Assembly: GCF_913057115.1 (NCBI RefSeq)
Contig: NZ_CAJXNN010000001.1
Coordinates: forward strand, 118,441 to 150,440
From: an uncultured Roseovarius sp.
GTDB taxonomy: Bacteria > Pseudomonadota > Alphaproteobacteria > Rhodobacterales > Rhodobacteraceae
Direction: 5' to 3'
Length of the DNA: 32,000 bases
Translations under genes and position numbers: made by a program
In this document: positions 8,714 to 27,478 of the stretch, piece by piece
How positions within the stretch are numbered: position 1 is the first letter of the stretch
Layout of the letters: each line of letters starts with the position of its first letter
The notes under the pieces: generated by a model
What the model was told of the DNA's origin: nothing
Seen by the model: the letters and a program-made list of their open reading frames with translations, nothing else
Database searches by the model: none

Positions 8714-8714
8714 G

Positions 8715-9732: not shown

Positions 9733-9822
9733 GGATCCCCTTTCCGGCCATCTGGCTGTAACAGATCACACGAATACCGGACGGCACGCCATGACAGCGG
9801 TCAAGTCAGGGTTTGCCGCAGA

Positions 9823-10221
9823 TCACAGCCAGTCGCGCAGGATCGGGATGAGTGGGATATCCGCTGGCGGCATGGGGTAGTTGCGCAGTTCGTTCACCCG
9901 CGCCCACTTGAGGGTTTGCCCCTCGCGGCCTTGCGGGAAGCCCTGCCACTTGCGGCAGGCATAGAGCGGCATGAGCAGGTGAAAATCCTCGTAGGAGTGG
10001 CTGGCGAAGGTCAAAGGGGCAAGACAGCTTTCCCATGTGTCGATGCCCAACTCTTCCTGCAACTCCCGAATGAGGGCGTGCTCGGGGGTTTCGCCGGGTT
10101 CGACCTTGCCGCCCGGAAACTCCCACAAGCCCGCCATGGATTTGCCTTCGGGGCGTTGGGTCAGAAGGATGCGGCCCTCGACGTCAATCAAGGCCACAGC
10201 CGAGACAAGAACGGTTTTCAT
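9823..10221 (-). CDS. mutT: NUDIX hydrolase, MutT-like 8-oxo-dGTP diphosphatase
   Basis: 132-aa ORF with the Nudix box GGKVEPGETPEHALIRELQEELG. Its start overlaps the argJ stop by 4 nt. Confidence 0.85.
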   Translation of the reverse strand: MKTVLVSAVALIDVEGRILLTQRPEGKSMAGLWEFPGGKVEPGETPEHALIRELQEELGIDTWESCLAPLTFASHSYEDFHLLMPLYACRKWQGFPQGREGQTLKWARVNELRNYPMPPADIPLIPILRDWL

Positions 10222-11447: not shown

Positions 11448-11450
11448 GGA

Positions 11451-12308
11451 TCAATCCTCCAAAAGGGTCATGTCGTTGATGGCGGCAGGATCAATGCCCG
11501 AGGTATCGGCGCGGTCCACGTCGCCGCGCGCTTCGAGTGTCTTGACGTAATCCTCGAAGGCGGCCTGGCGCAGTTCCTCTTCCAACTCGGCGCGCACGTC
11601 CTGAAGCGAGGGCTGGTCCTTGATCCGGGTTTCGTTGAGCTTGATCACATGCCAGCCGAATTGCGTTTGCACGGGCGCCGAGACCTCGCCCGCCTCAAGC
11701 GCGGTGACCGCGTTGAAAAATTCTTCGACCATCGTGCCCTCGCCGAACCAACCCAGATCGCCGCCATTGGCGCCCGAGGGTCCGACCGAGTTTTCCTGCG
11801 CGAGCGTTGCGAAGTCCGCACCGCCCTCAAGCTCTTCTATCAGGGCCTTGGCCTCGTCCTCGGATTCGACAAGGATATGCGCGGCGCTGTATTCGGTTTC
11901 GTCTTCGGCGTTGCCGTATTTTTCGTCATAGGCGGCCTGAACGGCCTCGGCGTCCGGATCGGCGCCCATCACCTCGGTGATGACCTCGCCGGCGACCACG
12001 GCACGCCGCTCGTTTTCGATAAGCAGTTCGCTCTGGCGCGAAAGCTCGCCTTCGAAATCCTGCATCAGAAGGGTTTGTTGAACCAATTGTTCAAGGATGC
12101 CGTTGAACAGCACCTCGGGGGGCAATTGTGCGTATTGTTGCGGCAGGCCCGAGCGCAGGGCAATCATATGGCCCAGCGTGATATCGGTACCGTTCACAGT
12201 GGCAACCACTGTTTCGGGGTCGGGGGTGTCCTGTGCGGCGGCGGGCGCGGCTGTCAGAAGGCCCGCGGCCAGTGCCATTGCGGAGAAAAACGGGGTGCGG
12301 ATAAGCAT
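11451..12308 (-). CDS. Periplasmic parvulin-type peptidyl-prolyl isomerase (SurA/PpiC-like)
   Basis: Start chosen at MLIRTPFFSAMALAAGLLTAAPAAAQD (signal peptide, ATG at 12308). The PpiC/rotamase signature AHILV...A..S.GPS...GGDLGWF....MV.EF lies in the C-terminal half. Confidence 0.85.
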   Translation of the reverse strand: MLIRTPFFSAMALAAGLLTAAPAAAQDTPDPETVVATVNGTDITLGHMIALRSGLPQQYAQLPPEVLFNGILEQLVQQTLLMQDFEGELSRQSELLIENERRAVVAGEVITEVMGADPDAEAVQAAYDEKYGNAEDETEYSAAHILVESEDEAKALIEELEGGADFATLAQENSVGPSGANGGDLGWFGEGTMVEEFFNAVTALEAGEVSAPVQTQFGWHVIKLNETRIKDQPSLQDVRAELEEELRQAAFEDYVKTLEARGDVDRADTSGIDPAAINDMTLLED

Positions 12309-12499
12309 GAAAGACCTTTCCTTGCGTTCGAGGCTGACCGCCACGCGGCTTTGCGTGACGTTGACACTCATTCGGCGGCCCCTTACATCGCCTTGAAGCC
12401 AAGGCAAAGCCGCCATTCCCTGCCCGTTCTAGGGTGGCAGGACAGACGGGGCAAGCAATTGCCTTTCACGCACAAGCAAAAGACCGGAACGGATAGCAC

Positions 12500-15211
12500 A
12501 TGTTGGGTATTGGAACCGTCGCCAAGAAGATCTTCGGCACCGCGAATGACCGCAAGATCAAGGCGACACGCCCTCTGGTCGCCAAGATCAACGCATTGGA
12601 ACCCGAATTCGAGGCCCTGAGCGATGAAGGGCTGATCGAAAAAACCGCCGAATTCAAGGCGCGGGTCGAGAACGGCGAGAGCCTTGATTCCATCCTGCCC
12701 GAAGCCTTTGCCAACTGCCGCGAGGGCGCGCGACGCGCCTTGGGCCTGCGGGCCTTCGATGTGCAGTTGATGGGCGGTATCTTCCTGCACCAAGGCAATA
12801 TTTCCGAAATGAAGACTGGCGAGGGCAAAACCCTTGTCGCCACCTTCCCCGCCTACCTCAATGCCCTGACCGGCAAGGGCGTGCATATCGTCACGGTCAA
12901 CGATTACCTTGCCCGCCGTGACGCCGACTGGATGAGCAAGGTCTATGGCGCCTTGGGCATGACCACCGGGGTGGTTTATCCGCAGCAGCCCGACGATGAA
13001 AAACAGCAGGCCTATGCCGCCGACATCACCTATGCGACCAACAACGAGCTGGGCTTTGATTACCTGCGCGACAACATGAAATCCTCGCTTGAGGAAATGA
13101 GTCAGCGCGGCCACCATTTTGCTATCGTCGACGAGGTGGACAGCATCCTGATCGACGAAGCACGGACCCCGTTGATCATTTCCGGCCCGGCGCAGGACCG
13201 CAGCGATCTCTATGTCGCCATCGACGCACTGATTCCCGAACTGACCGACGAGCATTACAGCATCGAAGAAAAATCCAAGACCGTGACCTTCACCGACGAG
13301 GGCAACGAATTCCTTGAAGAGCTTTTGCATTCCAAGGGTCTGCTGGACGAGGGACAGTCGCTTTACGACCCCGAAAGCACCACCATCGTGCACCACGTCA
13401 ACCAAGGGCTTCGGGCGCACAAGATGTTCCTGAAGGACCGTGATTACATCGTCCGCGATGGCGAGGTGATGCTGATCGACGAATTCACCGGCCGGATGAT
13501 GGCCGGGCGGCGTTTGTCAGAAGGCCTGCATCAGGCCATCGAGGCCAAGGAAGGCTGCGAGATCAAGCCCGAGAACGTCACGCTGGCGCAGGTGACCTTC
13601 CAGAACTATTTCCGCCTTTACGAAAAACTGTCGGGCATGACCGGCACTGCCTCGACCGAAGCCGAGGAATTCGCCGAGATTTATGGCCTTGGCGTGGTCG
13701 AAGTGCCCACCAACAAGCCCATCGCCCGAATTGACGAAGACGACGCGGTTTATCGCACCGCGCAGGAGAAATTCGACGCCATCGTCGACTCGATCCGCAA
13801 GGCGCATGAAAAGGGCCAGCCGATCCTTGTGGGGACCACCTCGATTGAAAAGTCTGAGGTGTTGAGCCAGCTTTTGACGCAGGCGAAAATCACGCACAAC
13901 GTGTTGAACGCCCGCCAGCATGAGCAGGAGGCGCAGATCGTCGCCGACGCCGGGAAGCTGGGCGCGGTGACCATCGCCACCAACATGGCCGGACGCGGCA
14001 CCGACATCAAACTGGGCGGGAACGTCGATTTCAAGATCATGCAGGCGCTGGAGGCCGACCCCGAGGGCGACCCCGAGGCAATCCGCGAAAAGATCGAGGC
14101 CGAACACGCCGCCGATGAACAGGCGGTTATCGAGGCCGGGGGCCTGTTCGTTCTGGCCACCGAACGCCACGAAAGCCGCCGCATCGACAACCAGCTGCGC
14201 GGCCGGTCGGGCCGTCAGGGCGACCCGGGGCGCTCGGCCTTCTTCCTGTCGCTGGATGATGACCTGATGCGCATCTTCGGCTCGGAACGCTTGGAAAAGG
14301 TGCTGTCCACGCTGGGCATGAAAGAGGGCGAGGCGATCGTTCATCCTTGGGTGAATAAATCGCTTGAGCGCGCACAGGCCAAGGTGGAAGGGCGCAACTT
14401 CGACATCCGCAAGCAGCTTCTGAAGTTCGACGACGTGATGAACGAGCAGCGCAAGGTGATCTTCACCCAGCGTCTGGACATCATGAAAGCCGAAGATCTT
14501 TCCGAAATCGTGCAGGACATGCGCGGCGAGGTGATCGACGATCTGGTCGAACAATACATGCCCCCCAAGACCTATGCCGACCAGTGGGATACCGAGGGCC
14601 TGCACGCGGCGATCATGGAACAGATGAACATGGATCTGCCGATTCAGGAGTGGGCCGAGGAAGAAGGCGTGGATGACGACGACATCGCCGACCGTATTGA
14701 AAGCGCCGCCGATGACATGATGGCGCAAAAGGCCGTCGCCTTCGGCCCGGACAACATGCGCTCCATCGAAAAGCAGATCCTGCTGCAAACGATAGATCAG
14801 AAATGGCGCGAGCACCTTCTGACGCTGGAGCATTTGCGCAGCGTCGTGGGTTTCCGGGGATACGCGCAGCGCGATCCGCTGAACGAATACAAGAACGAGG
14901 CCTTCCAACTGTTCGAATCGATGCTGGACAGCCTGCGCCAGGACGTGACCCAACGCCTGTCGCAAATCCGGCCCATGACCGAGGAAGAACAACAGGCCAT
15001 GTTGGCCCAGATGCAAGAACAGCGCGCCCAGATGGAGGAAGCCGCCAAGGCCCGCCACCCGGGCAGCAAGGTGGCCGAACCCGGCGGCGAAGCGGCTGCG
15101 CAAGGCTTCGATGAAAACGATCCTTCGACATGGGGCAACCCCGGCCGGAACGAGCCCTGCCCCTGCGGATCGGGCAAGAAATTCAAGCATTGCCACGGGC
15201 GTTTGGCTTAG
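12500..15211 (+). CDS. secA: Preprotein translocase ATPase SecA
   Basis: 903-aa ORF with a Walker A-like [42 protein letters not shown] and a C-terminal zinc finger [17 protein letters not shown]. The last 10 nt (15202-15211) are AT-richer and appear to be island-derived. Confidence 0.98.
15182..15201. repeat. attL core: left copy of the 20-bp direct repeat ttcaagcaYtgccacgggcg
   Basis: ttcaagcattgccacgggcg here versus ttcaagcactgccacgggcg at 24638-24657 (19/20). The base-composition switch occurs directly after this copy. Confidence 0.8.
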
Positions 15212-15264
15212 TCAATGAAATCAAGAACTTAGCAGATTGAATTGCAAATAAAAGTGTTGTACAC

Positions 15265-15316
15265 TTGTTAGGCAAAATAGGATTTTTGCTGTGGTGTCAG
15301 GCATTTGTTAGGCAAA
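15265..15316 (+). repeat. Two direct copies of ttgttaggcaaa (15265-15276 and 15305-15316), candidate integrase arm-type sites at attL
   Basis: Exact 12-mer repeated 40 bp apart. Related TTGTTAKGCA copies occur near attR (24560-24580). Confidence 0.45.
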
Positions 15317-16594
15317 GAAAACCCTGAATATGCTGAAAAGCTAATGGATGGAAAGGTGCTGTTGTGGACGCGCAATAGCATCTTTCAAGTGCGCTTATAC
15401 GCAGGCAATCGGCGCTACATTTACAAATCACTAAAAACACGAAACTTAGACGAAGCACGTGAAAAAGCTGTGCGTGCTTACTACGAGCTAGAGTTTCGCA
15501 AAGAGCAAAAGCTGCCAACACGGCAAAAGCGATTCAACGATGTAATCGACGAATACATTGCGATGCGTCAAAGCCAATATGAGCGAGGCACCCACAAGCA
15601 AAGCAACAAACAAAATCAACAACACAGAGGCGCTGATATGCTCCGGCAAATAAAGCGTGTGAGCAAATTTTGGCGTGAATATTGTGGTGGAAAGCAAGTC
15701 GACACAATCGACGACGCCTTGCTGCGCGACTATGTTAACTGGCGGCGCGATTACTACAGACGCATGCCTACACATGAAATGCCTAAAAATGCAAAGCTCA
15801 ACCCAGCCGACAAGACATTGGAATGGGAAACGACATTTGCGCTAACTTTGTTAAAATATGCCCATGAGCGGGGCTATCGAGGCAATAAACCGCTGCCAAA
15901 ATATCGTTACAAAGCCAGTCGTAATAAAACGCGTCCGGCTTTTACACTAGACGAGTATCGCAAGCTTTATAAAGGGTTGCGGCGCTGGATACATGAAGAG
16001 AAGAACAACGCAAAAAAGCGGTATGCGCGCGAGCTATTGCGCGATTATGTGCTGATACTGTCAAACAGTGGAATGCGCGTAGGTGAAGCTAACAATTTGC
16101 GCGAAAGCGATTTGGTGGAAATTACAGATGATAACGGACGCACGTTATATGGCTTCAATGTTGACGGCAAAACAGGCAAGCGTTTTGTCGTGCTGCGTTC
16201 CAACGGAAAACGCTATGTAGACAGGGTTTTAGAACGCAATAAGAAGTGGGCTGACAACTGGGAATTAGCATCAAAAAATGATGTAAAGCAGCATAATCGA
16301 CGTAATGCTGATCGTGGTGATTGGCTTTTTAAAATGGCTGATGGGAACAAAATCATCACGCTTATAGATCAGTTTAACAAAGTGCTTGAGCGCGAAGGCA
16401 TTACTTACAATCCAGACGGTGAAAAGTACACGCTATACAGTTTAAGGCATTTTTACGCAGTGCAGATGCTTAGGACTGGTAAGGTAAACGTGTTTGACAT
16501 TGCAAGAAACATGGGTACCAGCGTGCAAATTATTGAAAGTTATTACGGAAAGCACGCAACCAGTAGGTTGCTAGCCACACGATTGGGTGGCTAG
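15305..16594 (+). CDS. int: Tyrosine-type site-specific integrase
   Basis: 429-aa ORF (TTG at 15305; first in-frame ATG at 15344). The catalytic-domain signatures are SGMRVGEANNL (Arg I), YSLRHFYAVQ (box II R-H) and MGTSVQIIESYYGKH (catalytic Tyr). It sits immediately next to attL. Confidence 0.9.
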   Translation: MLGKENPEYAEKLMDGKVLLWTRNSIFQVRLYAGNRRYIYKSLKTRNLDEAREKAVRAYYELEFRKEQKLPTRQKRFNDVIDEYIAMRQSQYERGTHKQSNKQNQQHRGADMLRQIKRVSKFWREYCGGKQVDTIDDALLRDYVNWRRDYYRRMPTHEMPKNAKLNPADKTLEWETTFALTLLKYAHERGYRGNKPLPKYRYKASRNKTRPAFTLDEYRKLYKGLRRWIHEEKNNAKKRYARELLRDYVLILSNSGMRVGEANNLRESDLVEITDDNGRTLYGFNVDGKTGKRFVVLRSNGKRYVDRVLERNKKWADNWELASKNDVKQHNRRNADRGDWLFKMADGNKIITLIDQFNKVLEREGITYNPDGEKYTLYSLRHFYAVQMLRTGKVNVFDIARNMGTSVQIIESYYGKHATSRLLATRLGG

Positions 16595-16747
16595 GCTCGG
16601 GAAGCCAAGGCTTGGACCAAGTGATCCAATCCAGAAATAAATTAATAATCCGTAGGAAATTTATGCTCTGCTAAACAGAATTTTACTGACACCGCTTGTG
16701 CAGATGCTAATGTTGCTGAACACAATATTCAGCGGGTGAGAAGAGAG

Positions 16748-17944
16748 ATGTTAAAACATATTGATTGTTTCGCTGGAGTAGGCGGAGTCGCCACTGGATT
16801 TCATGCTGCTGGCATCTCAACTTGTCTAGCGATCGAGAAAGTGGACACATGCGCAGAGACATATTCTGCAAACCATCCCAATACCCCCTTGATAAAAGGT
16901 GATATCAGAGATGTCCGTGATGCTGAGATTCGGCAGCATGTCGAAGGTGACGTTGATGTTGTTACTGCGGGCATGCCGTGTGAAACTTTCAGCACTGCAG
17001 GCTCGTCAAGCCGCAGTTTCTACGATCATCGTCAAACTCTTTTTGAAGAGGCTATTAGAATAGCTGATACAGTTAATTCAAAATTTATCCTTTTTGAGAA
17101 TGTGCCAGGCTTCGCGAACAAAAAAGTTGCAAAAGACTCTTCAGAGCTTGTTATCGACTTATTGCGTAAAAGTTTGCAAGAACACGGCTATAACAACAAA
17201 ATCGAAATCGTATTGAACGCCAAGGACTATGGTGTCCCTCAAAGCCGACAGCGACTTTTTGTATTGGCGTCTAGAGAAAACGTTCAATTAACCGCACCGC
17301 ATGCATCAAATAATCGTGTTACGGTTGGCGAAGCTTTTGCTAATTTGCCACATGTCGACACAGCTGGACCAATCATTTCTGATGAATTTCTTCCAGTTAC
17401 AAACGATTATCTTTCATTATTGGCTAACCATAAGTTTTGGAATATGCCGAATGGTTCCAAGTGCACTTACCAAAAGTCTCCTAAGCATCGCCCCCATACC
17501 ATCAAACGATTCGAACTGATTCAAACGGGTGAAGGGCTCAAATCCCTTTTTGATCGGTTGCCGCAACATGAAGTTGAAAGACTGCAAAGTGAGCGGATTC
17601 TTCCTAAAAAGTGGTATATTCAACGTAATAGGCGTTTAAACCCCGCGGATGTTAGCCCGACGGTTACATCACATTGTATAGATGAACTTCTTCATCCAAC
17701 ACTCAACAGAGCAATAACTGTACGTGAAGCTGCGAGACTGCAAAGCTTTCCAGACTCTTACGATTTTATTGGTGGACCCGAAATTTGCCCGCATGTCTAT
17801 GAAACACAAGACAAATACGAGCAAATTGGTGATGCAGTTCCTCCTCTGATGGCTTATTCTTGGGCTGTCAAATTGAAGGAGTTGCTTAATGCCGGAAGAG
17901 GAGCGCCAAGAGCAAATTATAGCTCGATGTGTGGAGCTTTATGA
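16748..17944 (+). CDS. DNA (cytosine-5)-methyltransferase (Type II)
   Basis: Ordered C5-MTase motifs: I DCFAGVGG, IV GMPCETFS, VI ENVPGF, VIII QSRQRLF, IX TVREAARLQSFPD, X IGDAVPP. ATG at 16748, with an alternative GTG at 16736. Confidence 0.93.
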   Translation: MLKHIDCFAGVGGVATGFHAAGISTCLAIEKVDTCAETYSANHPNTPLIKGDIRDVRDAEIRQHVEGDVDVVTAGMPCETFSTAGSSSRSFYDHRQTLFEEAIRIADTVNSKFILFENVPGFANKKVAKDSSELVIDLLRKSLQEHGYNNKIEIVLNAKDYGVPQSRQRLFVLASRENVQLTAPHASNNRVTVGEAFANLPHVDTAGPIISDEFLPVTNDYLSLLANHKFWNMPNGSKCTYQKSPKHRPHTIKRFELIQTGEGLKSLFDRLPQHEVERLQSERILPKKWYIQRNRRLNPADVSPTVTSHCIDELLHPTLNRAITVREAARLQSFPDSYDFIGGPEICPHVYETQDKYEQIGDAVPPLMAYSWAVKLKELLNAGRGAPRANYSSMCGAL

Positions 17945-18728
17945 TAGCGAGTTTGCTGCGTGTGAGCGTGCTGGTGAATCTGAAACAGACGCACAACGTC
18001 ACGCAATATCGAAAAGCTTTGAACTTGCAGTCGGTGAATTTGGCGTAAAGGATGCGAGCTTTATATGGCGCGCAATAGACAGCGCTCATGTAAAAAGAAA
18101 ATCTGGAGCGCTCATTGAACCTGAAGTAATTGATGGTGTGCGAGCTGCCAGTCAAAGCTGGAATAAATCTAGTGGGCATGCTTTCGAGCAAAGTTTTTGT
18201 TCGGTAATGAATGAAAAATTGCACAATACCAATATGCGATTTTTGCTACAAAGAGAAATTTCCGCTTTAATCAAAAATCAGTGTCTTCTTAATAAGGAGC
18301 GTGATCTTGCCTCAATAAATGGCTGGAATGCGTCAAGTGTCTTCGATGTGTTTGTCGCCCAAAAAGAACCAAATGAAGAGCTCTTTGAAGTTTTTGGATG
18401 CGTTCAATGTAAAACCAGCATTCGGGATCGGGTAACAAGAGATCGCGAGCCAAGTACTCAAGCAATGAATTCTTTTTTTTGGTCCATAGCTGTGGTTATT
18501 GATGGGCATTTTCTAAAGCTACCAAAATTTGAGCACATGGTTAACGGTGGAAGTAACGACTATCCGAATAATGGCTGGCACGGCATGTACGCTTTTAGCA
18601 ACTGCTCGAATGTTGACAGAGTTTTTCTGCTAGAAGACGGATTGGAACCTTTAATAGAACACTCTAAAAAAGCGTACCGAGCTTTCAATTCAGAGCGTCA
18701 ATGGCTAGATGCTGATTGGCGCCCTTAA
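17889..18728 (+). CDS. Putative Type II restriction endonuclease (PD-(D/E)xK; possible CCGG-family relative)
   Basis: 279-aa ORF with a strong RBS (aaggag). Its start overlaps the methyltransferase 3' end by 56 nt. It carries SVFD153VFV ... VQ173CK175TSIR179D180R181 (nt 18405-18431), that is D...(Q)xK followed by K-x3-R-D-R. Confidence 0.65.
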   Translation: MPEEERQEQIIARCVELYDSEFAACERAGESETDAQRHAISKSFELAVGEFGVKDASFIWRAIDSAHVKRKSGALIEPEVIDGVRAASQSWNKSSGHAFEQSFCSVMNEKLHNTNMRFLLQREISALIKNQCLLNKERDLASINGWNASSVFDVFVAQKEPNEELFEVFGCVQCKTSIRDRVTRDREPSTQAMNSFFWSIAVVIDGHFLKLPKFEHMVNGGSNDYPNNGWHGMYAFSNCSNVDRVFLLEDGLEPLIEHSKKAYRAFNSERQWLDADWRP

Positions 18729-18745
18729 GTGTGTCGTTGTCAATT

Positions 18746-18797
18746 TACAGTTATCTTTTTTCAGCGTCTAAACGAACGCTTGGAACTGTAGTTTTTG
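18746..18797 (+). terminator. Candidate terminator between the convergent REase and DpdA-like genes
   Basis: Nested inverted repeats tacagtt (18746-18752) / aactgta (18784-18790) and agcgt (18763-18767) / acgct (18776-18780), followed by gttttt. The stems are weak. Confidence 0.3.
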
Positions 18798-18798
18798 A

Positions 18799-20079
18799 TT
18801 AGCTTAGCACAGCCTGAATTTTGTTGAGATTTTCTCGTATGCGTGTTGGCAGTTTGTCCCAATCTGCGTTGTCGGCGAACACTTGGTTGCAGGCTATTAT
18901 AGCTGCACGATGGTAAACGTATATGTTGTGATTGGTAAGCAAGCAGGCGCTGAGCTTGTCGAAAAAAGTCTGTGCAAACAGCCCGCGCTCCACATGCAAA
19001 TCATTGATGCTAAAGCGCTTACTAATCGGTGACTGAATATCCTCCAAATAGCGAACATCGTCTTGTTTTTTGTATTTGGGATGCTGTGGGAATGGCATGC
19101 TTGGGATGCGCCAGGTTTTAATATCACTCGTTAAGGCGGGCATTTGACAAATTTTTTCGTATTTACCTGCTGTTTGAAACGGTGAGCTGCTGTCGTAGCT
19201 GACTGTGATTTCTGTGCCGAGCAGCCGGCGAAGTTGTTTCTGAATTGCCGTGCAATAAACCGCATGTTCTGCGGGAGATAGCATCAGTATGTGCAACCAT
19301 TCTGCGTGATCAAGTTTTTGATCGTCCAGCAAACGTCGTATCCATTTCAAGATAGGATCAAGCCCGCTTTTTGTGTCGCCACCAAAAGCCCATCCTTCAA
19401 AATCAAAGTCTTTAACAGCGTGGTACCAAGCTTCACCTGTGCCGTTTCCAGCGTCTTGCAAGACATTGAGGTATTTTGCTTTGGCACCTGTTGCCTTGCC
19501 TCTGTTGTCAGCAAAGTAACGTAAGTTTTCCACACTTAGTTCAATCAGCTGTTCGGTGTTGAGGTTAATAAACGGTGAAGACTTTGCCTGTGGATTTGTA
19601 TGCACCCAAAGCGGCATATCCAGTGTCATCGCATAGTCACTGTTTGTATCAAGCCAGCGTAAAATATTGTCGCGTACGCTTCGCCGTGCAAGCCATTGGT
19701 GGTACACAGCGTTAGGCTGTTTGCTATACTTTTGCAAATCGCTGACAGCTTTCAGGCTTCCCATGCCAATTTGGAAGCCGCCACTGTCTCCTAAAACAAC
19801 AGTGTCTTTGCTGCGCCGTGCAACCATGTCTGTGGCAGGCAATGTAGCTTTTTCGAACTGCCCGGCGCTATAGAGCACATATTTGCAGTGCCACAGATTG
19901 TTGTTGGGATTCAAAAAATCCAAATCAGCAAGATTGCATCCTTGGGGTAAATTACCATCGCGCACAGACGCGACATCGCTGTAGGGTAAGTTGGCATAAC
20001 CGCGTTGGAGTGACGGCAAATAGATTGCATACCCTTCGTACTGAGCAGTTAGATTTTCACCGATTGAATGCACAGGCAT
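18799..20079 (-). CDS. tRNA-guanine transglycosylase superfamily protein, DpdA-like (putative DNA 7-deazaguanine transglycosylase)
   Basis: 426-aa ORF with colinear TGT-like motifs: VLGDSGGFQ (nt 19771-19788; cf. TDSGGFQ), TLDMP (cf. FDEC), GWAFGG (cf. GYAVGG), HILMLSPAEH (cf. YLMGVGKPED), YDSSSPFQTAGK (cf. FDCVxPTRxARxG), NHNIYVYH (cf. HNLxFY). No CxCxxC Zn cluster was seen. Its start overlaps the upstream stop (TAATG). Confidence 0.7.
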   Translation of the reverse strand: MPVHSIGENLTAQYEGYAIYLPSLQRGYANLPYSDVASVRDGNLPQGCNLADLDFLNPNNNLWHCKYVLYSAGQFEKATLPATDMVARRSKDTVVLGDSGGFQIGMGSLKAVSDLQKYSKQPNAVYHQWLARRSVRDNILRWLDTNSDYAMTLDMPLWVHTNPQAKSSPFINLNTEQLIELSVENLRYFADNRGKATGAKAKYLNVLQDAGNGTGEAWYHAVKDFDFEGWAFGGDTKSGLDPILKWIRRLLDDQKLDHAEWLHILMLSPAEHAVYCTAIQKQLRRLLGTEITVSYDSSSPFQTAGKYEKICQMPALTSDIKTWRIPSMPFPQHPKYKKQDDVRYLEDIQSPISKRFSINDLHVERGLFAQTFFDKLSACLLTNHNIYVYHRAAIIACNQVFADNADWDKLPTRIRENLNKIQAVLS

Positions 20080-21761
20080 TATGCTTGCTCAGGCAAATCT
20101 GTGTATTGCTCATAAGCAGGCAAATAGCTTTGATAGCGAGCCAAGTCTGTTTCGTATTCCAACATCATCCCACTAGCGTTCCCGCGCATAACGATGTCAT
20201 GCTTGTCTAGTGGCAGTGTCGCTATTGCGCTAAACAACAGCATGGCGTCTTTGGGGTAAAGATTGATGGTGGGAGTGCTGGTGCTGATTTTTGCTTGCGC
20301 CGCTTTGCCCAATTCAAACTGTTTTTGCTCTGAAAAGCTTTTGTTTTTGGCATCCCACCAGTAATCAAATCGCACACTACTTTCACTGAAATGCAGAGCG
20401 ATTTTGCGGCTTTGTGGTTTGTTGAAAAAGCTGCGTATACGCGTGATCCAGTGTTGTACGCAATTTGCGTCAAATTCCGCAAACCATTGAGCATTTGCTG
20501 TAACGCGCCAACTGCTTTTAAAGCGTGTTTCTGGATCAATCATCATACCCACTATGCTTTCCTCTGGCATTTCCTCGCAGTCGTAAAAGTAAATGCTGCG
20601 CTTGTGATGTGTCGCTTCGCTGTTGAGGTGCAAACTGTATCGGGTGAGTCGATCTGTTGAATTCTCAATCAGCCTATCTTTGGGCTCAGCAGTATAAAGC
20701 GAGAGCTTTTGGCTGTTTATCAATTCCCGTTCAATCCAGCTGCGATCAGAGCCCCGCAATACAAGTGAATTGCCGTCGTGCAGCTGCATGCGCTTGGGAA
20801 TTACATGAGTGACAGCAGTGGTTTTGTAAGGCGTTTTTGTAACCACGATGTCTTTTTGGGCTGGGCGCACTAATAATGTGGTATTGCAAGGGACATGCAC
20901 GGTTTTGCCGTGTCTATCCGTGCGCGTAACTGTGCTACTCAAGTCAAAGAAACGCTTGCGATATTTTTCTAGAGGTGCAGGTACAGTATGTGGCTGCAGT
21001 GCCTCTGCAATTAAGCGCAAGCTGGGCGTAACGCCAGCTCTGTCAATATCTGTGCAAGCAAGCAGCGCGGTATCAATCAAATCATCAGTGTAGTTACTGC
21101 CCACAACTTCCAGCTCGCCTGTTTCGTTGTTTCGCCGCGCCAGCATTACAACAAAGTCATCGCTGTTGGTGACGGCGGAAGCAAAGGCAGGGAGGCTTGC
21201 CTTGGGTTTTACGCTTTTGGCATGCTCCACTTTGTTGTTGAAAACTGCAGCGTTGCCAGTGCTTCCAGTTTTGCGTCCGCGTCCATCTTGTTCTTCAAAA
21301 TCAGCAGCTTCTTCCTCGTCAGCCAGCTCTTGCGCTGTCATACGCCTTTCACCGCGCAGCTCGCCCAATCCACCCATGTCGTGTATGTGATTGATCAGTG
21401 CTGTGCGGGCATCGTTGCTAAAAAGATGTGGTTTTTCAGCATAAGTCTCGTGCAACGCTAGTAGGGATTTGGACCAGTTGCTTATGGTGCTTGCGTGCTT
21501 TTTTACGTCCATTTGCCAAATCATACGTACCAAAGGGTAAAAGTTTGGCTGGTTGCTCGGCTTTCGCCGCGTGCGAATACCGCGTTCGTCGTAAAGCTGT
21601 TTTAAATAATCGCCCTGCTGCTCCGCAGCCCGCCACCACAAGTATGCATCGACTATGTTTTGGTACAGCTGATTTCTGCTGCTTTCATACGCAGCTGTTT
21701 GCGACTGCGCAGCTGCTTCAAGTTGCTGAAGCTGTCGATCCAAATCGTTGTTATTTGTCAT
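20079..21761 (-). CDS. Hypothetical 560-aa protein, translationally coupled partner of the DpdA-like gene
   Basis: Long uninterrupted ORF in AT-rich DNA. It has a coiled-coil-like N-terminus, an acidic linker (ELADEEEAADFEEQDG) and a beta-rich C-terminal two-thirds. I recognise no catalytic motif. Confidence 0.75.
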   Translation of the reverse strand: MTNNNDLDRQLQQLEAAAQSQTAAYESSRNQLYQNIVDAYLWWRAAEQQGDYLKQLYDERGIRTRRKPSNQPNFYPLVRMIWQMDVKKHASTISNWSKSLLALHETYAEKPHLFSNDARTALINHIHDMGGLGELRGERRMTAQELADEEEAADFEEQDGRGRKTGSTGNAAVFNNKVEHAKSVKPKASLPAFASAVTNSDDFVVMLARRNNETGELEVVGSNYTDDLIDTALLACTDIDRAGVTPSLRLIAEALQPHTVPAPLEKYRKRFFDLSSTVTRTDRHGKTVHVPCNTTLLVRPAQKDIVVTKTPYKTTAVTHVIPKRMQLHDGNSLVLRGSDRSWIERELINSQKLSLYTAEPKDRLIENSTDRLTRYSLHLNSEATHHKRSIYFYDCEEMPEESIVGMMIDPETRFKSSWRVTANAQWFAEFDANCVQHWITRIRSFFNKPQSRKIALHFSESSVRFDYWWDAKNKSFSEQKQFELGKAAQAKISTSTPTINLYPKDAMLLFSAIATLPLDKHDIVMRGNASGMMLEYETDLARYQSYLPAYEQYTDLPEQA

Positions 21762-21778
21762 TAGGGAGCCCGAAAAAT

Positions 21779-21801
21779 TTTACATCGAAAGGTGATGCAA
21801 G
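21779..21801. repeat. Candidate recombinase core site B (tttacatcg-aaagg-tgatgcaag)
   Basis: Its reverse complement cttgcatca-ccttt-cgatgtaaa matches site A (22532-22554) at 18/23 positions. It lies in the 42-nt gap between the recombinase stop and the 560-aa ORF start. Confidence 0.45.
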
Positions 21802-21803
21802 AG

Positions 21804-22379
21804 TTATCCTACAAGCTCCACAGCTGCCCGCAACTTTTTATCGTTTAATTCAATATAGCGTTGTGTGGTGTTGAGGTGCTTGTGGCGCGCGAGCGCCTGT
21901 ACAACACGCGCATTCAACCCCTTGTCTGCCAACTCAGTCACAAACTGCCGCCTGCCGCTGTGACTGCTCGCCCCATCAATGCCAGCAGCAGTGTAAAGCG
22001 TGTAAAATAGGTTCACCATCGTCTGCGCGCTAAAGCCGCCACCTTTTGCACTAAAAATCAGCGGTGCCTCAGGCTGCTGTAGGCGGCGCGGGTATTGTTT
22101 AGCATACCGAGTCAAAGCTTGCGCGGTGCGGCGGTTGATTAAAACTGTGCTGGTGCAGCTGCCTTTGGTTTGTGTCGCTTGCAGCAGCACGAACTCACGC
22201 ACAGCGCCTGTGCTTTCAAATACGTCACCAACGCGCAAAGCTGCTATCTCACATGCGCGCATACCAGCATAAAAGCTCAGCGCTACGGCTGTATGATTAC
22301 GTGTTGGATAGCGCCGACTGTTAATCACGGCTGACAGGCGTTTGAACTCTACTTTGTTGAGTAGTTTTGCTTGTTTCAT
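21804..22379 (-). CDS. Short (191-aa) tyrosine recombinase, catalytic domain only (FimB/FimE-sized)
   Basis: Carries YAGMRACEIAAL (Arg I), SSHSGRRQFVTE (H-x-x-R) and ARHKHLNTTQRYIE (His plus catalytic Tyr). There is a good RBS (gagga, 8 nt upstream) and no N-terminal arm- or core-binding domain. Confidence 0.85.
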   Translation of the reverse strand: MKQAKLLNKVEFKRLSAVINSRRYPTRNHTAVALSFYAGMRACEIAALRVGDVFESTGAVREFVLLQATQTKGSCTSTVLINRRTAQALTRYAKQYPRRLQQPEAPLIFSAKGGGFSAQTMVNLFYTLYTAAGIDGASSHSGRRQFVTELADKGLNARVVQALARHKHLNTTQRYIELNDKKLRAAVELVG

Positions 22380-22531
22380 TTTGAAGTCCTCAGTAATGTG
22401 TGGATTTGCTTTAAGTTATTATAAAGTCACACATTTTCGCGGACGATCGGAATTTACATTTTTGCTAAGTCGCTGTTTTAATTGAGGCTTGGAGCGAAAT
22501 GTTAGGGATTACATATTAGCTAACATTATTG

Positions 22532-22554
22532 CTTACATCGTTTTTCGATGTAAG
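22532..22554. repeat. Candidate recombinase core site A (cttacatcg-ttttt-cgatgtaag; perfect palindromic arms)
   Basis: Perfect 10-bp inverted repeat gcttacatcg (22531-22540) / cgatgtaagc (22546-22555) around a 5-nt spacer, about 150 bp upstream of the recombinase start. Confidence 0.5.
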
Positions 22555-22630
22555 CCACAGTTCGTACATAGCCGCGCAAAATAAACTCGTTAACCGACTA
22601 ATGCTAAATATTGCTGAAGGGGTAACGAGT

Positions 22631-22918
22631 ATGAACAAGCGAACAACTGACGCATTGCTTAAAGAAATGCGCCAACACATCAGGCGATTGCCGAAAGCAG
22701 AAAAAATTGAGCTGGCTGAAAAACTCCTGCAAATTGCTTCGACGGCAATAAATTGGCTGCGGGAAGACGACAAAGGTGGCACAACAGCTTCGCGCCGACG
22801 CAAGCTGCAAGGACGGGAAACCAAGCTGGATGCGAACAAACCTGTTTCGCCAGTAACTGTTGCTGAGCCGCATAAGCCAAAACCGATGAAATACAAAGGC
22901 AAGCACAGAGATGACTAA
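22631..22918 (+). CDS. Hypothetical protein (95 aa), basic C-terminus
   Basis: ATG at 22631 preceded by gaagggg. The product MNKRTTDALLKEMRQHIRRLPKAEKIELAEKLLQIA... looks helical and charged. Its stop overlaps the next start (ATGACTAA). Confidence 0.5.
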   Translation: MNKRTTDALLKEMRQHIRRLPKAEKIELAEKLLQIASTAINWLREDDKGGTTASRRRKLQGRETKLDANKPVSPVTVAEPHKPKPMKYKGKHRDD

Positions 22919-23252
22919 GTGCGCAGTAGTGCGTGTTTATGACGTGCTGTCCCAAAACGAGTTAGTGCATACAGCTGAAGACTTTGGTGTGAATTGGTGC
23001 GGCAAATGCAAGAGCTGGTATGCGGAGCGTAAACACGCTAGGCGCGATTTTGGCGTTGCAGCTGCTACAGCGTGCTATCGCGCTATTCACCATAAACTTG
23101 AGCAAGTGCGCAAAAGCAGACTTCGTATCGGCGCTGTGCTTGATGATGAAGTTGAAGCACTTGAAGCAGCACGTGATTTAGTGCAGCGCTATCTGCTTGA
23201 GCATCACAGCATCTCAGCTGTTTTGGTTGATGAAAAGCACGAGCTTGTTTGA
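22911..23252 (+). CDS. Hypothetical protein (113 aa) with a CxxC element
   Basis: Translationally coupled to the previous ORF. Contains NWCGKCKSWY and later ACYRAIHH. No family is recognised. Confidence 0.5.
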   Translation: MTKCAVVRVYDVLSQNELVHTAEDFGVNWCGKCKSWYAERKHARRDFGVAAATACYRAIHHKLEQVRKSRLRIGAVLDDEVEALEAARDLVQRYLLEHHSISAVLVDEKHELV

Positions 23253-23314
23253 ATTGGTATCTGGAATCAGTTTATCCGTTCTTTTATTTAAAGGCTCAAA
23301 AGTCTTTTGAACGC

Positions 23315-23357
23315 TTAGGCTGTGATTTGAGTATACTAAAGATTAGCAACAGCCTAA
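23315..23357. repeat. Stem-loop (9-bp perfect stem, 25-nt AT-rich loop), candidate rolling-circle origin or terminator
   Basis: ttaggctgt (23315-23323) / acagcctaa (23349-23357) with loop gatttgagtatactaaagattagca. It lies in the non-coding gap just downstream of the Rep-like gene. Confidence 0.35.
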
Positions 23358-23445
23358 CGGCGTCACTTCTAATATATCTCAAGTTATAGCCCTCTAGTGC
23401 CGTCAGCATCGCCGCGTCGCACCGTGTGAAGACAATCACTCGTGC

Positions 23446-23985
23446 TTAAGAAATGGGCTTAGTGCCATAGTTTGCTTTAACGAGCCGTCGCAAATATCGC
23501 ATTTGATCAAAATCGGATGCATTCATCGACACTGTATTTGTGTAGCTAAGCTGCGGGTTAAATGTGTCTTGTTTAAGCTGTCCATATTCATGCAGGCAAT
23601 ACACGCTAGCCGCGTGTTTGTTGCGTATAAGCTCAACTCTTGATGTTGCACAGCTTTCGTCAAAGCTGCTCCAAAGCGTCTTAAGTGTATTGCAGAAAGT
23701 TGTAGTGCCGCCAAAGCTTTTGAAGGCAACGTGAAAGTGTGTGTTAAAACCACTCTTTCCGTAGTGCTTAAACACAAAGCGTTCAATACGCCTTCCAAGC
23801 TTGCATTCTGTTTTCCCCAAAAACGTCCTGTCTGCTTTGTTCAAGAATACCCGCAAAACTTGCTCTGCTTGTGCATCGCTAATGTCGTAGCCATTCGCAA
23901 ATTTGAGCGTGGCAAACACGTCTACGTCAGAATTTCGTATCCAGTTTATGTATTGATTTTGTATGTCTTGATTGCACGCTAACAC
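23446..23985 (-). CDS. HUH-type rolling-circle replication initiator-like protein (179 aa)
   Basis: GTG start with GGAG 6 nt upstream. The three RCR motifs are colinear: I VFATLKF, II NTHFHVAF (HUH; nt 23731-23739), III ASVYCLHEY (Tyr). Confidence 0.55.
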   Translation of the reverse strand: MLACNQDIQNQYINWIRNSDVDVFATLKFANGYDISDAQAEQVLRVFLNKADRTFLGKTECKLGRRIERFVFKHYGKSGFNTHFHVAFKSFGGTTTFCNTLKTLWSSFDESCATSRVELIRNKHAASVYCLHEYGQLKQDTFNPQLSYTNTVSMNASDFDQMRYLRRLVKANYGTKPIS

Positions 23986-24109
23986 CGTTTACTCCGCTTG
24001 CTTTTATTTATTTATCCTTAGCGCGCTAAAGTGAAGTTTTTTGATTTTGATCGTCCAAGCTACTGCTAGAGCTTAATATTTTTTGAGCCGCTGAAATTTG
24101 GAGGACAAA

Positions 24110-24541
24110 ATGGCTTTATTAGACGAACTCAAGCTCACAACATACGAGCCGGGCGCATTCTCAAACCCCGTTTCTAATCGTCGGCACAAGTTCGCAGCAA
24201 AGATTGACGAGCAAATTAAGCTTGCTGTTGATCCAGATTATCAGCCTAAAAAGCTAATCTGGCGTGAAGATGCACACGGTAATAGGACGCGCGTTGAAAT
24301 GCCAAAACGTATTAAACCATGGTGGAGTCAAAGTCCGGACGGAACTGTGCTTTTGACATTGCGCTACGGCAGTAAAGCTTTGGAATTAGCTAAGGGTAAG
24401 AATGCTGTTGAAGTGTTGAGTAAAGAAGACGTGGAAGGAACGTTGCGTAAAATAAAACTGGCTGTTTTGGCTGGTGAATTTGATGCTCTGCTTGAAAAGC
24501 ACATAGTCAAAAAGAAACCGATAGAAGCAAATAAAAGCTGA
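24110..24541 (+). CDS. Conserved-looking hypothetical protein (143 aa)
   Basis: ATG at 24110 is preceded by ggagga, so the TTG at 24098 is unlikely. The product MALLDELKLTTYEP...PKRIKPWW...LTLRYGSKALELAKGKNAVEV... recalls small proteins I associate with mobile elements, but I cannot name the family with confidence. Confidence 0.6.
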   Translation: MALLDELKLTTYEPGAFSNPVSNRRHKFAAKIDEQIKLAVDPDYQPKKLIWREDAHGNRTRVEMPKRIKPWWSQSPDGTVLLTLRYGSKALELAKGKNAVEVLSKEDVEGTLRKIKLAVLAGEFDALLEKHIVKKKPIEANKS

Positions 24542-24559
24542 GCAAAAACAATGAGTTAA

Positions 24560-24613
24560 ATGTTATGCAATTGTTATGCACAGCTGCATGTGTATGATAA
24601 TGCATTGTTATTA
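24560..24613 (+). repeat. TTGTTAKGCA-like direct repeats near attR (atgttatgca 24560-24569, ttgttatgca 24571-24580, ttgttattat 24604-24613)
   Basis: Same orientation and near-identical core to the ttgttaggca copies at attL. These are candidate arm-type integrase binding sites. Confidence 0.4.
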
Positions 24614-24637
24614 TTGAATAAATCGCAATCCGTTTGA

Positions 24638-24657
24638 TTTCAAGCACTGCCACGGGC
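24638..24657. repeat. attR core: right copy of the 20-bp direct repeat
   Basis: ttcaagcactgccacgggcg. GC-rich host-like sequence resumes exactly here. Confidence 0.8.
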
Positions 24658-24667
24658 GGCTCGCCTA
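24638..24667 (+). other. Displaced native 3' end of secA (encodes ...FKHCHGRLA-stop)
   Basis: ttc aag cac tgc cac ggg cgg ctc gcc tag translates to FKHCHGRLA*, identical to the end of the intact secA ORF at 15182-15211 but with GC-rich synonymous codons. Confidence 0.75.
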
Positions 24668-24727
24668 GCGTGAGCCGACGGGCGGCGGCCTTCTGACCCG
24701 ACATTACAAGCCCTAAAGACTCCGCGG

Positions 24728-24752
24728 GGCTGCCACATAGCGGCCTCTTTCC
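24728..24752 (+). terminator. Candidate original secA terminator, now separated from secA by the island
   Basis: GGCUGC-cacaua-GCGGCC (one G-U pair) followed by UCUUUCC. The stem is short. Confidence 0.3.
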
Positions 24753-24796
24753 GGGGGTAGGTTCCTGCTGACCTATTCCAGGTGTGGAGGAATGTT

Positions 24797-25831
24797 ATGT
24801 CCAAGGTACGGCGTTTTATCACCGCTGGCGGCACCCTGTTTTGCGCCCTCGGCATCGGCTTTTTGATGCAGACCAATGCCAAGCAAGACAAAGAAGCCAC
24901 CCTCGCACCCGAACCGGTGGAAGCCAGCCTGTTGCAGGACGAGGTCAGCCCGGCTGACCCCTCGGGCAGCGATCATGTGGAGATTTCCGATATCCAACTG
25001 ACAGCGGCGACCGGGGTGACCCCGCCCAAGGCCGCGCCTCAACCAAAGACCCTTCCCGAGATCGCGATCACCCGCGCGGCCTTTGATCCCGCGACCGGAG
25101 CTGAAACACCCGTTGGCGACCTTCCCAAGGAAGAACCCGCACCGGAATTTTCCTGTGAGTTCAACCTGACAGCGACGCCCGCTGCCGCCGCCATGGTGAC
25201 CCTTGACCTTGAAGCCCCCTGCATGGTCAACGAGCGCTTCACCCTGCATCATAACGGCCTGATGTTCACGGCAGCGACCGATCAGGACGGCATGAGCCGA
25301 ATGACCGTTCCTGCGCTGTCCAAGCATGCTGTCTTTATCGTGGCCTTCGCCAATGGCGACGGCGCGGTGGCCAACGCCGAGGTGTCGTCGGTAGAGTATT
25401 ACGACCGCTATATCGTGCAATGGCAGGGGCAGTCCGGCCTTCAGGTGCACGCCCTTGAATATGGTGCAACCTATGGCGAGGACGGCCATGTCTGGGCCGA
25501 TGCCAAACGTGACATGGGCATCGCCGCGCGCGGCGAGGGCGGCTTCATCATGCGGCTCGGCGCGCGGGACATGGAAAACGCACGCATGGCTGAAGTCTAT
25601 ACCTTCCCGACGCTCACGGCGCAAAAGCCGGGCGAAATCGACCTGAGGCTCGAAGCGGCGGTGACGCGCGCAAACTGTGGCCGCGATATCGAGGCGCAAA
25701 GCCTGCATATTTCCGGCACGCAGGCCCCTGTCGCCAGCGATTTGACGCTCGCCATGCCCGAATGTGACGCTGTTGGTGATTATCTGGTGTTGAAAAACAT
25801 GTTCAATGACCTGAAGATCGCCCGCAACTGA
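24797..25831 (+). CDS. Hypothetical membrane-anchored or exported protein (344 aa)
   Basis: ATG at 24797 after ggagga, with an N-terminal hydrophobic segment (GGTLFCALGIGFLM). It is GC-rich and host-like. No family is recognised. Confidence 0.6.
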   Translation: MSKVRRFITAGGTLFCALGIGFLMQTNAKQDKEATLAPEPVEASLLQDEVSPADPSGSDHVEISDIQLTAATGVTPPKAAPQPKTLPEIAITRAAFDPATGAETPVGDLPKEEPAPEFSCEFNLTATPAAAAMVTLDLEAPCMVNERFTLHHNGLMFTAATDQDGMSRMTVPALSKHAVFIVAFANGDGAVANAEVSSVEYYDRYIVQWQGQSGLQVHALEYGATYGEDGHVWADAKRDMGIAARGEGGFIMRLGARDMENARMAEVYTFPTLTAQKPGEIDLRLEAAVTRANCGRDIEAQSLHISGTQAPVASDLTLAMPECDAVGDYLVLKNMFNDLKIARN

Positions 25832-25855
25832 TCCGCAGTATTCGGGGGCACCCAG

Positions 25856-27415: not shown

Positions 27416-27427
27416 CCGGCCAAGGGC

Positions 27428-27471: not shown

Positions 27472-27478
27472 CCGGCCC

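Follow-up and report, generated by a model that had tools for sequence, protein, structure and literature searches.

The secA Locus and Its Direct Repeat

We analyzed a 32,000-nt stretch of DNA from an uncultured Roseovarius sp. (GCF_913057115.1, contig NZ_CAJXNN010000001.1, positions 118,441-150,440, forward strand; hereafter the window), in which a block of low GC content lies between the 3′ end of secA and a second copy of that end. The secA open reading frame (ORF) encodes the full protein, with 5/5 SecA Pfam domains and the SEC-C zinc motif at residues 883-901. A repeat search of the window recovered a direct repeat pair at 15182-15211 and 24639-24668 (30 nt, 83% identity), and the first 20 nt of this repeat, TTCAAGCA[T/C]TGCCACGGGCG, match at 19 of 20 positions between the copies. 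The 20-nt pattern occurs exactly twice in the window, compared to an expectation of zero from 100 shuffles, and the two copies bound a block of 9,457 bp (the island; its ends are designated attL and attR). An initial annotation of this DNA had the left copy right (15182-15201) and set the right copy (24638-24657) 1 nt too far to the left, as it starts at 24639.

At the left copy, secA ends with ...aag aaa ttc aag cat tgc cac ggg cgt ttg gct tag, and the second copy of this end, 9,457 bp downstream, reads ttc aag cac tgc cac ggg cgg ctc gcc tag. The left tail (cgt ttg gct tag) and the right tail (cgg ctc gcc tag) each encode Arg-Leu-Ala-stop in the secA frame. GC content is 0.41-0.52 within the island and 0.59-0.65 outside it (means of 0.452 for the island and of 0.613 and 0.625 for the flanks), and the change falls in the 500-nt bins containing both repeats. 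An ORF for a 429-aa tyrosine integrase begins 93 nt past the secA stop codon, and no tRNA genes were found in the window. Thus, the synonymous AT-rich and GC-rich tails, the switch of composition at the junctions and the integrase 93 nt inside attL, all of which the initial annotation had described, are present as claimed.

Empty Site and Independent Assemblies

An exact look-up of the 903-aa SecA sequence found it in two places, an island-bearing contig that is 99.6% identical to the window (L082) and an island-free one (GCA_965660585.1, here L081), where the 344-aa gene that lies to the right of the island in the window directly follows secA. Positions 1-12702 of L081 align to window positions 2501-15201 at 98.7% identity and positions 12683-20044 align to 24639-32000 at 98.9% identity; the stretch common to these alignments is the 20-nt repeat and nothing more, which puts 15201 next to 24659 at the empty site (junction sequence ...aaattcaagcactgccacgggcggctcgcctagcgtgagcc...). 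SecA is identical in every residue with the island (window) and without it (L081). The initial annotation had stated that SecA stays intact at the protein level and, as a test set in advance, that an empty site would connect the secA repeat directly to the downstream sequence, and both are what L081 displays. The flanks of L081 and the window diverge by ~1.2%, and presence or absence of the island therefore varies between strains this close.

The same attL was detected in four other assemblies, ENA ERZ27241896 (one contig, carrying loci L082 and L083), ENA ERZ27241910 (L084), JGI 3300000547 (L085) and JGI 3300000517 (L086), and both ENA assemblies also carry attR. Because these independent assemblies agree on attL and attR, the island is not an assembly chimera. 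More broadly, it is extremely improbable that the repeat is a transposase target-site duplication, a chance match or an artefact of assembly: the one point in favor of this is that a flanking direct repeat exists at all, whereas no transposase was found among the window proteins, the copies diverge codon-synonymously (which a fresh duplication would not), several assemblies agree on the junctions, and the same architecture recurs in 55 species (see below).

Overall, the locus combines the features of a 3′-end-restoring island, namely a repeat in the 3′ end of the target gene at both junctions, an integrase gene beside one of them, an empty site, and a preserved gene product. We consider it very likely that the block is a 9,457-bp integrative genomic island that was inserted into the 3′ end of secA by its own tyrosine integrase via site-specific recombination. 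Its features are listed in Table 1.

Table 1. Coordinates (window numbering) of secA, the predicted attachment sites and the genes of the island.
Feature	Position	Strand	Evidence or remarks
secA, 903 aa, intact	12500-15211	+	Five SecA Pfam domains; last codons from ~15190 predicted to be island-supplied
attL core region	15182-15211	+	Direct repeat; 2 matches vs 0 expected; family-wide left identity boundary; inverted-repeat analysis
attL octamer TTCAAGCA	15182-15189	+	Putative overlap/crossover region
attL core-type site TTGCCACGG	15190-15198	+	Encodes Cys-His-Gly
attL tail and stop, predicted island-supplied	15199-15211	+
P′ arm	15212-15316	+	Conserved block TCAATGAAATCAAGAACTTA and two tandem pairs of arm-type repeats
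P′ arm, repeat pair 1	15255-15263 (TGTTGTACA), 15266-15274 (TGTTAGGCA)
P′ arm, repeat pair 2	15295-15303 (TGTCAGGCA), 15306-15314 (TGTTAGGCA)		Overlaps integrase start codon
Tyrosine integrase, 429 aa, TTG start	15305-16594	+	PF00589; PHROG 216; XerA 4a8e alignment; family invariant columns
C5 cytosine DNA methyltransferase, type II	16748-17944	+	PF00145, E 2.9e-59; PADLOC MTase_II, E 3.7e-106; TIGR00675
BsaWI-family type II restriction endonuclease	17889-18728	+	PF18643 (RE_BsaWI), E 4.5e-13; PADLOC REase_II, E 4.8e-73
426-aa protein, TGT/DpdA-like TIM-barrel fold (TGT, tRNA-guanine transglycosylase)	18799-20079	-	AlphaFold2 pLDDT 91.3; Foldseek
560-aa protein, N-terminal helical region, C-terminal PCNA/sliding-clamp-like fold	20079-21761	-	AlphaFold2 pLDDT 76; Foldseek
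Short canonical tyrosine recombinase, 191 aa, catalytic domain only	21804-22379	-	PF00589, E 1.7e-21
95-aa ORF	22631-22918	+	Weak helix-turn-helix-like match
113-aa DUF6626-like ORF	22911-23252	+	DUF6626, E 1.2e-4, below cut-off; relative in L001, E 2.4e-29
179-aa candidate HUH protein (rolling-circle Rep or relaxase-like)	23446-23985	-	Motifs FATLKF, HFHVAF, Y..HE
DUF6641 protein, backbone gene	24110-24541	+	PF20346, E 3.4e-21; phrog_31551 (function unassigned family); 17 loci
P arm	24542-24638	+	Tandem pair TGTTATGCA at 24561-24569 and 24572-24580
attR core region	24639-24668	+	Same as empty-site sequence in L081
attR octamer TTCAAGCA	24639-24646	+
Displaced native secA tail CTGCCACGGGCGGCTCGCCTAG	24647-24668	+	Within attR
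Host gene, 344 aa, no family match	24797-25831	+	Directly after secA in island-free relatives (gene order, L081 vs L082)

A Clade of Integrases Linked to secA

The integrase has 925 relatives in the protein database. A scan of genome contigs with the single protein gave no match, and a scan with an alignment of 22 sequences returned 80 loci (one genome per species; the best 80 of 104 matches were examined), whose secA context we determined by tblastn with the SecA of the window. Where the integrase is at least 42% identical, secA ends ~95 nt upstream and on the same strand in 55 of the 61 loci. Among the exceptions, three loci are cut by contig ends, one (L036) has the core and tail preceded by non-secA DNA resembling the P arm, and two (L057 and L060) have no secA, with one of the integrases truncated. 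The alphaproteobacterial hosts of the secA-linked integrases belong to the Rhodobacterales, Maricaulales, Sphingomonadales, Acetobacteraceae, Hyphomicrobiales, and Rhodospirillales, and the betaproteobacterial hosts to the Burkholderiales and others. Together with the empty site, these loci bear out the proposal of the initial annotation that the chromosomal attachment site (attB) is the DNA for the SecA zinc-finger tail instead of a tRNA gene; its suggested check, whether homologues of the integrase also lie downstream of secA, came out positive in both Alpha- and Betaproteobacteria.

The 19 loci with more distant integrases (27-31% identity, L061-L079) have a different context, as most of these integrase genes lie 160-270 nt downstream of a tRNA gene (Arg-CCG, Leu-CAA, Cys(GCA), Phe, or Pro) in the same orientation and geometry. 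This indicates that the secA clade is a specialised branch of a tRNA-targeting integrase group.

Within the clade, integrases are the more alike the more closely their hosts are related, and the nearest ones to that of the window (70-74% identity) come from other Rhodobacteraceae. The octamer at the start of the repeat is TACAAGCA in 31 loci vs. TTCAAGCA in 19, again divided largely by taxonomy, with TTCAAGCA typical of most Rhodobacterales and TACAAGCA of most Betaproteobacteria. Since integrase identity follows host taxonomy, individual elements probably circulate within host clades. Thus, the suggestion that the site could serve a broad range of hosts holds for the family as a whole and is doubtful for any single element, given the way in which both octamer and integrase identity follow the hosts.

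The clade is large and apparently undescribed, and uses the secA site in at least 55 species of Alpha- and Betaproteobacteria. A full-text literature search turned up no account of secA being used as an attachment site; such islands may be listed in the TIGER/Islander catalogue, which was outside the scope of this search, and the result is not proof of novelty. Likewise, secA is not mentioned in the supplements of the Integrase-On-Demand paper. Matches to secA in the literature concerned either SecA2 or a eukaryotic-like secA gene that phage WO carries as cargo, or were a word match to “secalinum.”

Probable Position of the Crossover and the Supplied Tail

To place the crossover, we compared the nine islands of which both ends were recovered (window, L001, L011, L012, L013, L015, L024, L025, and L034; 6.7-11.2 kb). 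In 9/9 of them the identity of attL and attR starts at T[T/A]CAAGCA, the codons for Phe/Tyr-Lys-His, whereas its right end is variable, after 9 to 29 nt. A fixed left end combined with a variable right end suggests that the overlap region is at the left, and that similarity extends rightward only because the P′ side mimics the end of secA. At position 9 of the repeat, the empty site and attR share a C, in place of which attL has a T. As attL alone has the T, this position appears to be island-derived, which would put the exchange 5′ of position 9. In addition, the attR octamer is flanked by imperfect inverted repeats with the consensus CCGTGGnAA, T[T/A]CAAGCA, CTGCCACGG, in which the inverted core sites match at 7/9 positions in five of the nine attR sites. 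Core-type sites around a 6-8-bp overlap are the classical arrangement for such recombination.

Judged from these comparisons, the crossover probably falls within the 8-nt spacer TTCAAGCA rather than at the end of the 20-nt repeat. With a crossover in the octamer, the island would supply seven codons and the stop (HCHGRLA-stop) and not three codons. The initial annotation had the island supplying only the last three codons, by exchange at the end of the 20-nt repeat; the octamer boundary in 9/9 islands, position 9 and the inverted sites all speak against this. Cys-His-Gly of the SecA zinc motif is encoded by the right half-site, and the supplied codons cover the Cys and His in the second half of that motif (CxC...CH), which we take to be two of its four metal ligands.

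A variant with the same island and integrase places strand exchange in TGCCACGGGCG (15191-15201), so that three codons would be supplied and the T/C at position 9 would be a strain polymorphism. This 11-nt block is indeed the longest perfect attL/attR identity in the window, and with a ~1.2% flank difference between the island-bearing and the island-free strain a chance change at one site is possible. Nevertheless, we regard this variant as unlikely. The left end of identity is fixed in nine islands while the right end varies from 9 to 29 nt, L012 has a mismatch inside the 11-nt block, and the block overlaps the right inverted half-site and not the spacer; moreover, the probability of a difference is ~0.012 per flank site, compared to ~5/22 island-derived tail positions that differ.

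In the arrangement that we favor, with exchange in the spacer, the core of the island's attachment site (attP) would consist of two imperfect inverted 9-bp integrase-binding sites (CCGTGGnAA and CTGCCACGG) around the 8-bp spacer T[T/A]CAAGCA. Spacer and right half-site would together equal the DNA for Phe/Tyr-Lys-His-Cys-His-Gly of the SecA zinc-binding tail, such that the chromosome would offer the same sequence as attB, and strand exchange would take place in the spacer. The predicted attP reads ...AATCCGTTTGAT/TTCAAGCA/TTGCCACGGGCGTTTGGCTTAGTCAATG... and the predicted restored attB ...GGCAAGAAA/TTCAAGCA/CTGCCACGGGCGGCTCGCCTAGCGTG... (slashes delimit the spacer). After integration, attL would comprise secA up to the spacer followed by the seven final codons and stop that the island carries, keeping the length and, here, the sequence of SecA, while the native secA tail would stay untranslated at attR.

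The supplied tail keeps the native length in 9/9 islands and is equal in amino acids to the displaced tail in 5/9; in the others one to three residues differ (for instance, SLK supplied vs. KLS native in L013). Synonymous re-encoding, as first described for this DNA, therefore applies to the island in the window and is not a rule of the family. In Escherichia coli, the metal-binding domain of SecA can be deleted, with cells viable at 37°C and not in the cold (PMC6620043). This indicates that the targeted segment of secA is important and not strictly essential.

Putative Attachment-Site Arms and Possible Transcription Signals

Across 18 family members, the gap between the secA stop and the integrase gene contains a common block, TCAATnAAATCAAnnnCTTA, and two tandem pairs of 9-mers with the pattern TGTTnnnCA-nn-TGTTnnnCA. 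The positions of these repeats are conserved across integrases of 56-74% identity, and the layout of both arms was seen in 8/9 complete islands. The exception, L034, has another repeat (ACCTryACA) at the same positions and an integrase that is 45% identical, so that repeat and integrase covary. The tandem repeats are most simply read as arm-type sites to which the integrase would bind. The window-wide count of TTGTTAKGCA was not above chance (5 vs. 3.05), and it is their concentration in the arms, with conservation and covariation in the family, that makes the case for arm sites. The presence of tandem repeats on either side, and a stretch resembling an arm-binding domain at the N-terminus of the integrase, would suggest a lambda/P4-type intasome.

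A consensus scan found no terminator-like site between the secA stop and the integrase start (15212-15304), and the counts of promoters and terminators in these scans were within shuffle expectation. Given that the 93-nt gap lacks a terminator-like site, read-through from secA into the integrase gene is possible, and it is a possibility that such read-through could couple the behavior of the island to secA expression. A weak promoter-like match of the consensus scan in the P arm (24571-24598) points across the core, and would face the integrase gene in a circular form.

Two other loci have unusual junctions. Positions 1-70 of L036 consist of a secA-tail core (TACAAGCACTGCCACGG..., encoding YKHCHGKYA-stop) that follows P-arm-like DNA, of which the left flank covers just 34 nt; the whole has the appearance of an attP junction or of one between tandem islands. 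In L024, the similarity of attL and attR (9863-9900 vs. 21016-21050) runs ~30 nt past the stop codon into P′-arm-like sequence, which points to another island in tandem, or a remnant, on the right side of attR; the locus ends 148 nt later.

The Integrase and the Nature of the Element

The integrase matches PHROG 216 (“integrase,” E 2.7e-12) and has a PF00589 score of 26.9 bits, compared to a gathering cut-off of 27.1 (E 4.8e-6); NCBIfam models gave no match. TTG at 15305 was taken as the start because homologues begin with MLGK..., and the ATG at 15344 (416 aa), where gene callers set the start, was dropped since the homologues share this N-terminus. In an alignment of the family profile to XerA (4a8e), and in the 416-aa numbering, R245, K276, R368, and Y401 align with catalytic residues and are invariant in 22 family members. 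Tyr365 occupies the position of His I and Thr392 that of His II, and both are invariant or nearly so in the clade. This pattern is that of a divergent active site and not of a disrupted gene.

Several observations weigh against an island inserted by this integrase, or against parts of the model. The integrase is without both conserved histidines and falls just below the Pfam cut-off. The placement of the crossover rests on a single polymorphic position, possibly a strain difference given ~1.2% flank divergence, and on comparative inference, and the inverted repeat is weak in the P-side half-site of this island (5/9). The junction of an attP circle (P arm, core, and P′ arm) was not found in JGI metagenome contigs, where P arm and core alone likewise gave no match and no second host context for this island appeared. 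Finally, Pfam, PHROGs, NCBIfam, and a PDB sequence search revealed no confident excisionase, relaxase, or replication gene among the island ORFs.

Because no excised circle turned up in the JGI contigs, present-day mobility is something we infer. The island could instead be a fixed, immobile remnant, with the empty state of L081 either ancestral or an old loss, and with no ongoing recombination. The missing attP junction in the metagenome contigs is in line with this, as is the same host context of every recovered copy of the island. We consider a fixed remnant improbable, however, as the integrase ORF is intact with its catalytic Arg, Lys, Arg, and Tyr, the att arms and repeats are intact, presence or absence of the island differs between strains ~1.2% apart, and the related element L036 has an attP-like or tandem junction.

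We also considered a degenerate prophage or a phage satellite, similar to phage-inducible chromosomal islands, rather than a plain genomic island. Satellite-like traits are the modest length of 7-11 kb and the terminal location of the integrase gene, and the DUF6641 protein matches a PHROG family of unassigned function. On the other hand, the PHROG search yielded no capsid, terminase, primase, or other phage-category match beyond the two recombinases, and relatives of the integrase were absent from 2.9 million IMG/VR viral contigs and from 50,697 phage records, making a phage-derived element very unlikely. A plasmid-borne origin was dropped as well, given that plasmid records gave only distant integrase matches (25-32% identity).

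As for movement of the genomic island between cells, Pfam and NCBIfam searches of the ten island ORFs gave no match to type IV secretion, coupling protein, or relaxase families, and conjugation machinery would not fit into an island of 9.5 kb. One possibility is that it could move as a small replicon or a mobilisable element, using the candidate HUH protein.

The initial annotation had attributed the low GC content to acquisition from a distant, lower-GC lineage. All complete islands (9/9) have GC contents 10-25 points below those of their hosts, and hosts richer in GC have islands richer in GC. With all islands low in GC, GC tracking the host, and the closest integrases (70-74%) in Rhodobacteraceae, the low GC reflects the usual AT bias of mobile DNA, and the idea of a distant donor loses its support.

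Backbone and Cargo Genes

Clustering of the ORFs over all loci revealed a mosaic of backbone genes and variable cargo, the latter including type I and type II restriction-modification genes. The integrase is encoded in all loci, a short recombinase (about 190-230 aa) in 22, DUF6641 in 17, and a 265-aa protein in eight; an HUH-like protein, DUF6626, and a small AAA ATPase are further backbone components. The benefit of the island to its host is likely defence or DNA modification. In the window, adjacent methyltransferase and endonuclease genes, predicted from their families, constitute a type II restriction-modification system.

The neighboring 426-aa and 560-aa proteins have no match in Pfam, NCBIfam, PADLOC, or PHROGs. 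The only significant structural matches of the 426-aa protein are TGT (top match 5jsw, E 1e-7) and DpdA, a DNA preQ0 insertase (7ui4, E 2e-5), at TM scores of 0.40-0.52, and its family has an invariant GDSGGxQ motif (columns G97-Q103). The C-terminal half of the predicted 560-aa structure matches PCNA chains at E ~1e-9, with a target-normalised TM score of ~0.6 (Foldseek). The two families co-occur, and on the strength of the structure models the two proteins could form an undescribed DNA-modification or defence pair. This pair is a separate lead for the biology of DNA modification or defence.

The short recombinase of the window has a full-length match to a Fim-type invertase model (NF007370, E 6e-10, below cut-off), and this conserved backbone protein may be a resolvase or an invertase or serve in cargo capture. 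Between its gene and that of the integrase, the window has the restriction-modification genes and the 426/560-aa pair; in L001 and L008, the short recombinase adjoins the integrase. An inverted repeat (21780-21801 and 22532-22553) flanks the short recombinase gene, and its right arm (22532-22553) is a perfect palindrome, TTACATCG-N5-CGATGTAA, in the divergent intergenic region between the recombinase gene and the 95-aa ORF. From its sequence and position, the palindrome may be an operator or a recombination site.

For the HUH candidate, residues F24, T26, H83, H85, Y129, and E133 are invariant in five homologues, and two members of the family have weak matches to PF23343 (REP_ORF2-G2P; E 0.013 and 0.047). 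Searches for this protein found no sequence relative in the PDB and no plasmid match, nor did an origin turn up.

Relation to Known Integration Systems

Insertion at gene ends with restoration of the gene is well established (tRNA genes, icd, dusA, trmE, and guaA), and the secA island is not mechanistically surprising. What is new is the zinc-tail target in secA and the size and coherence of the clade, a solid and useful observation. At icd, elements reportedly carry a substitute 3′ end that keeps the gene functional and leave the displaced end at the far junction as a pseudo-fragment (in work attributed to Hill, 1989, and to Campbell). The secA island resembles phage 21 and e14 in having its attB in the 3′ end of a housekeeping protein-coding gene and in carrying a substitute end. 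Unlike these, which are a prophage and a prophage remnant of one species, it belongs to a family of small islands in two proteobacterial classes, with another target gene and another integrase lineage. Phage 21 and e14 at icd of E. coli are among the examples listed in PMC12540744.

A dedicated integrase family at dusA was found in more than 200 bacteria and reported as novel (Farrugia et al., 2015; PMC4482086). Similar to the dusA-associated integrases, the secA clade is a large proteobacterial group of tyrosine integrases dedicated to one conserved housekeeping gene, and in both systems the integrase is the sole universal gene and the cargo is highly variable; restoration of the target gene has been proposed for dusA islands, too (PMC4482086). 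The likeness is one of mode and not of target, as the dusA target is the 5′ end of a non-essential tRNA-modification gene whereas here it is the 3′ end of secA (55/61 loci).

With P4-like islands at tRNA genes, the secA island shares the order of target gene, ~100-270 nt, and integrase gene on the same strand, and the re-supply of the 3′ end of the gene. In contrast to these, its target is protein-coding, so that the re-supplied segment is constrained at the codon level, and its integrase has the two conserved histidines replaced. Other coding genes are targeted by guaA 3′-end islands and by SXT/R391 at the 5′ end of prfC. Like these elements and the SGI1-family islands at the 3′ end of trmE (PMC8409611), the secA island enters the end of a conserved coding gene site-specifically and without inactivating it. 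The trmE, guaA, and prfC elements are conjugative or mobilised by known conjugative plasmids, whereas no transfer machinery was found here, and targets and integrases differ. Tn7 inserts by TnsABC+D transposition at attTn7 downstream of glmS, beyond the stop codon. In both cases an essential gene marks a safe site in many hosts by the conserved sequence that encodes its C-terminus; the mechanism of Tn7 is unrelated, however, and Tn7 replaces no coding sequence.

Taking the family as a whole, we lean, by a modest margin of confidence, toward an undescribed integrase clade (with Tyr and Thr for the two histidines) that is specialised on the codons of the SecA zinc motif (T[T/A]CAAGCA and CTGCCACGG) across Alpha- and Betaproteobacteria and that moves small islands whose defence or DNA-modification cargo can be exchanged and includes the new TGT/DpdA-like and clamp-like pairing. 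If this is true, an attB would be present in nearly every member of both classes, and the integrases could be safe-harbour integration tools, with non-model marine and freshwater bacteria as candidate hosts for such chromosomal integration. The att model of half-sites, spacer, and covarying arm repeats would also allow specificity to be read against protein-coding constraint. For genome annotation, the region beside secA is a recurrent hotspot that accumulates defence cargo.

Related islands of Rhodobacteraceae lie beside other conserved genes. They again contain the module made up of the short recombinase, a small ORF and the ~570-aa and ~420-aa proteins, and, as at secA, their integrase genes adjoin the 3′ end of a conserved gene, albeit another one. 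For instance, in a Roseinatronobacter metagenome-assembled genome (L088, 7219-16552) the integrase gene is just downstream of the clpS 3′ end and the island carries the same pair of methylase and BsaWI-like genes, and in L090 (6520-15867) the integrase gene is just downstream of the rpsI 3′ end. DUF6626 is also common to these islands, whereas their integrases are only 25-29% identical to that of the window. Shared backbone and cargo combined with divergent integrases indicate that integration modules have been exchanged on a common island chassis in Rhodobacteraceae.

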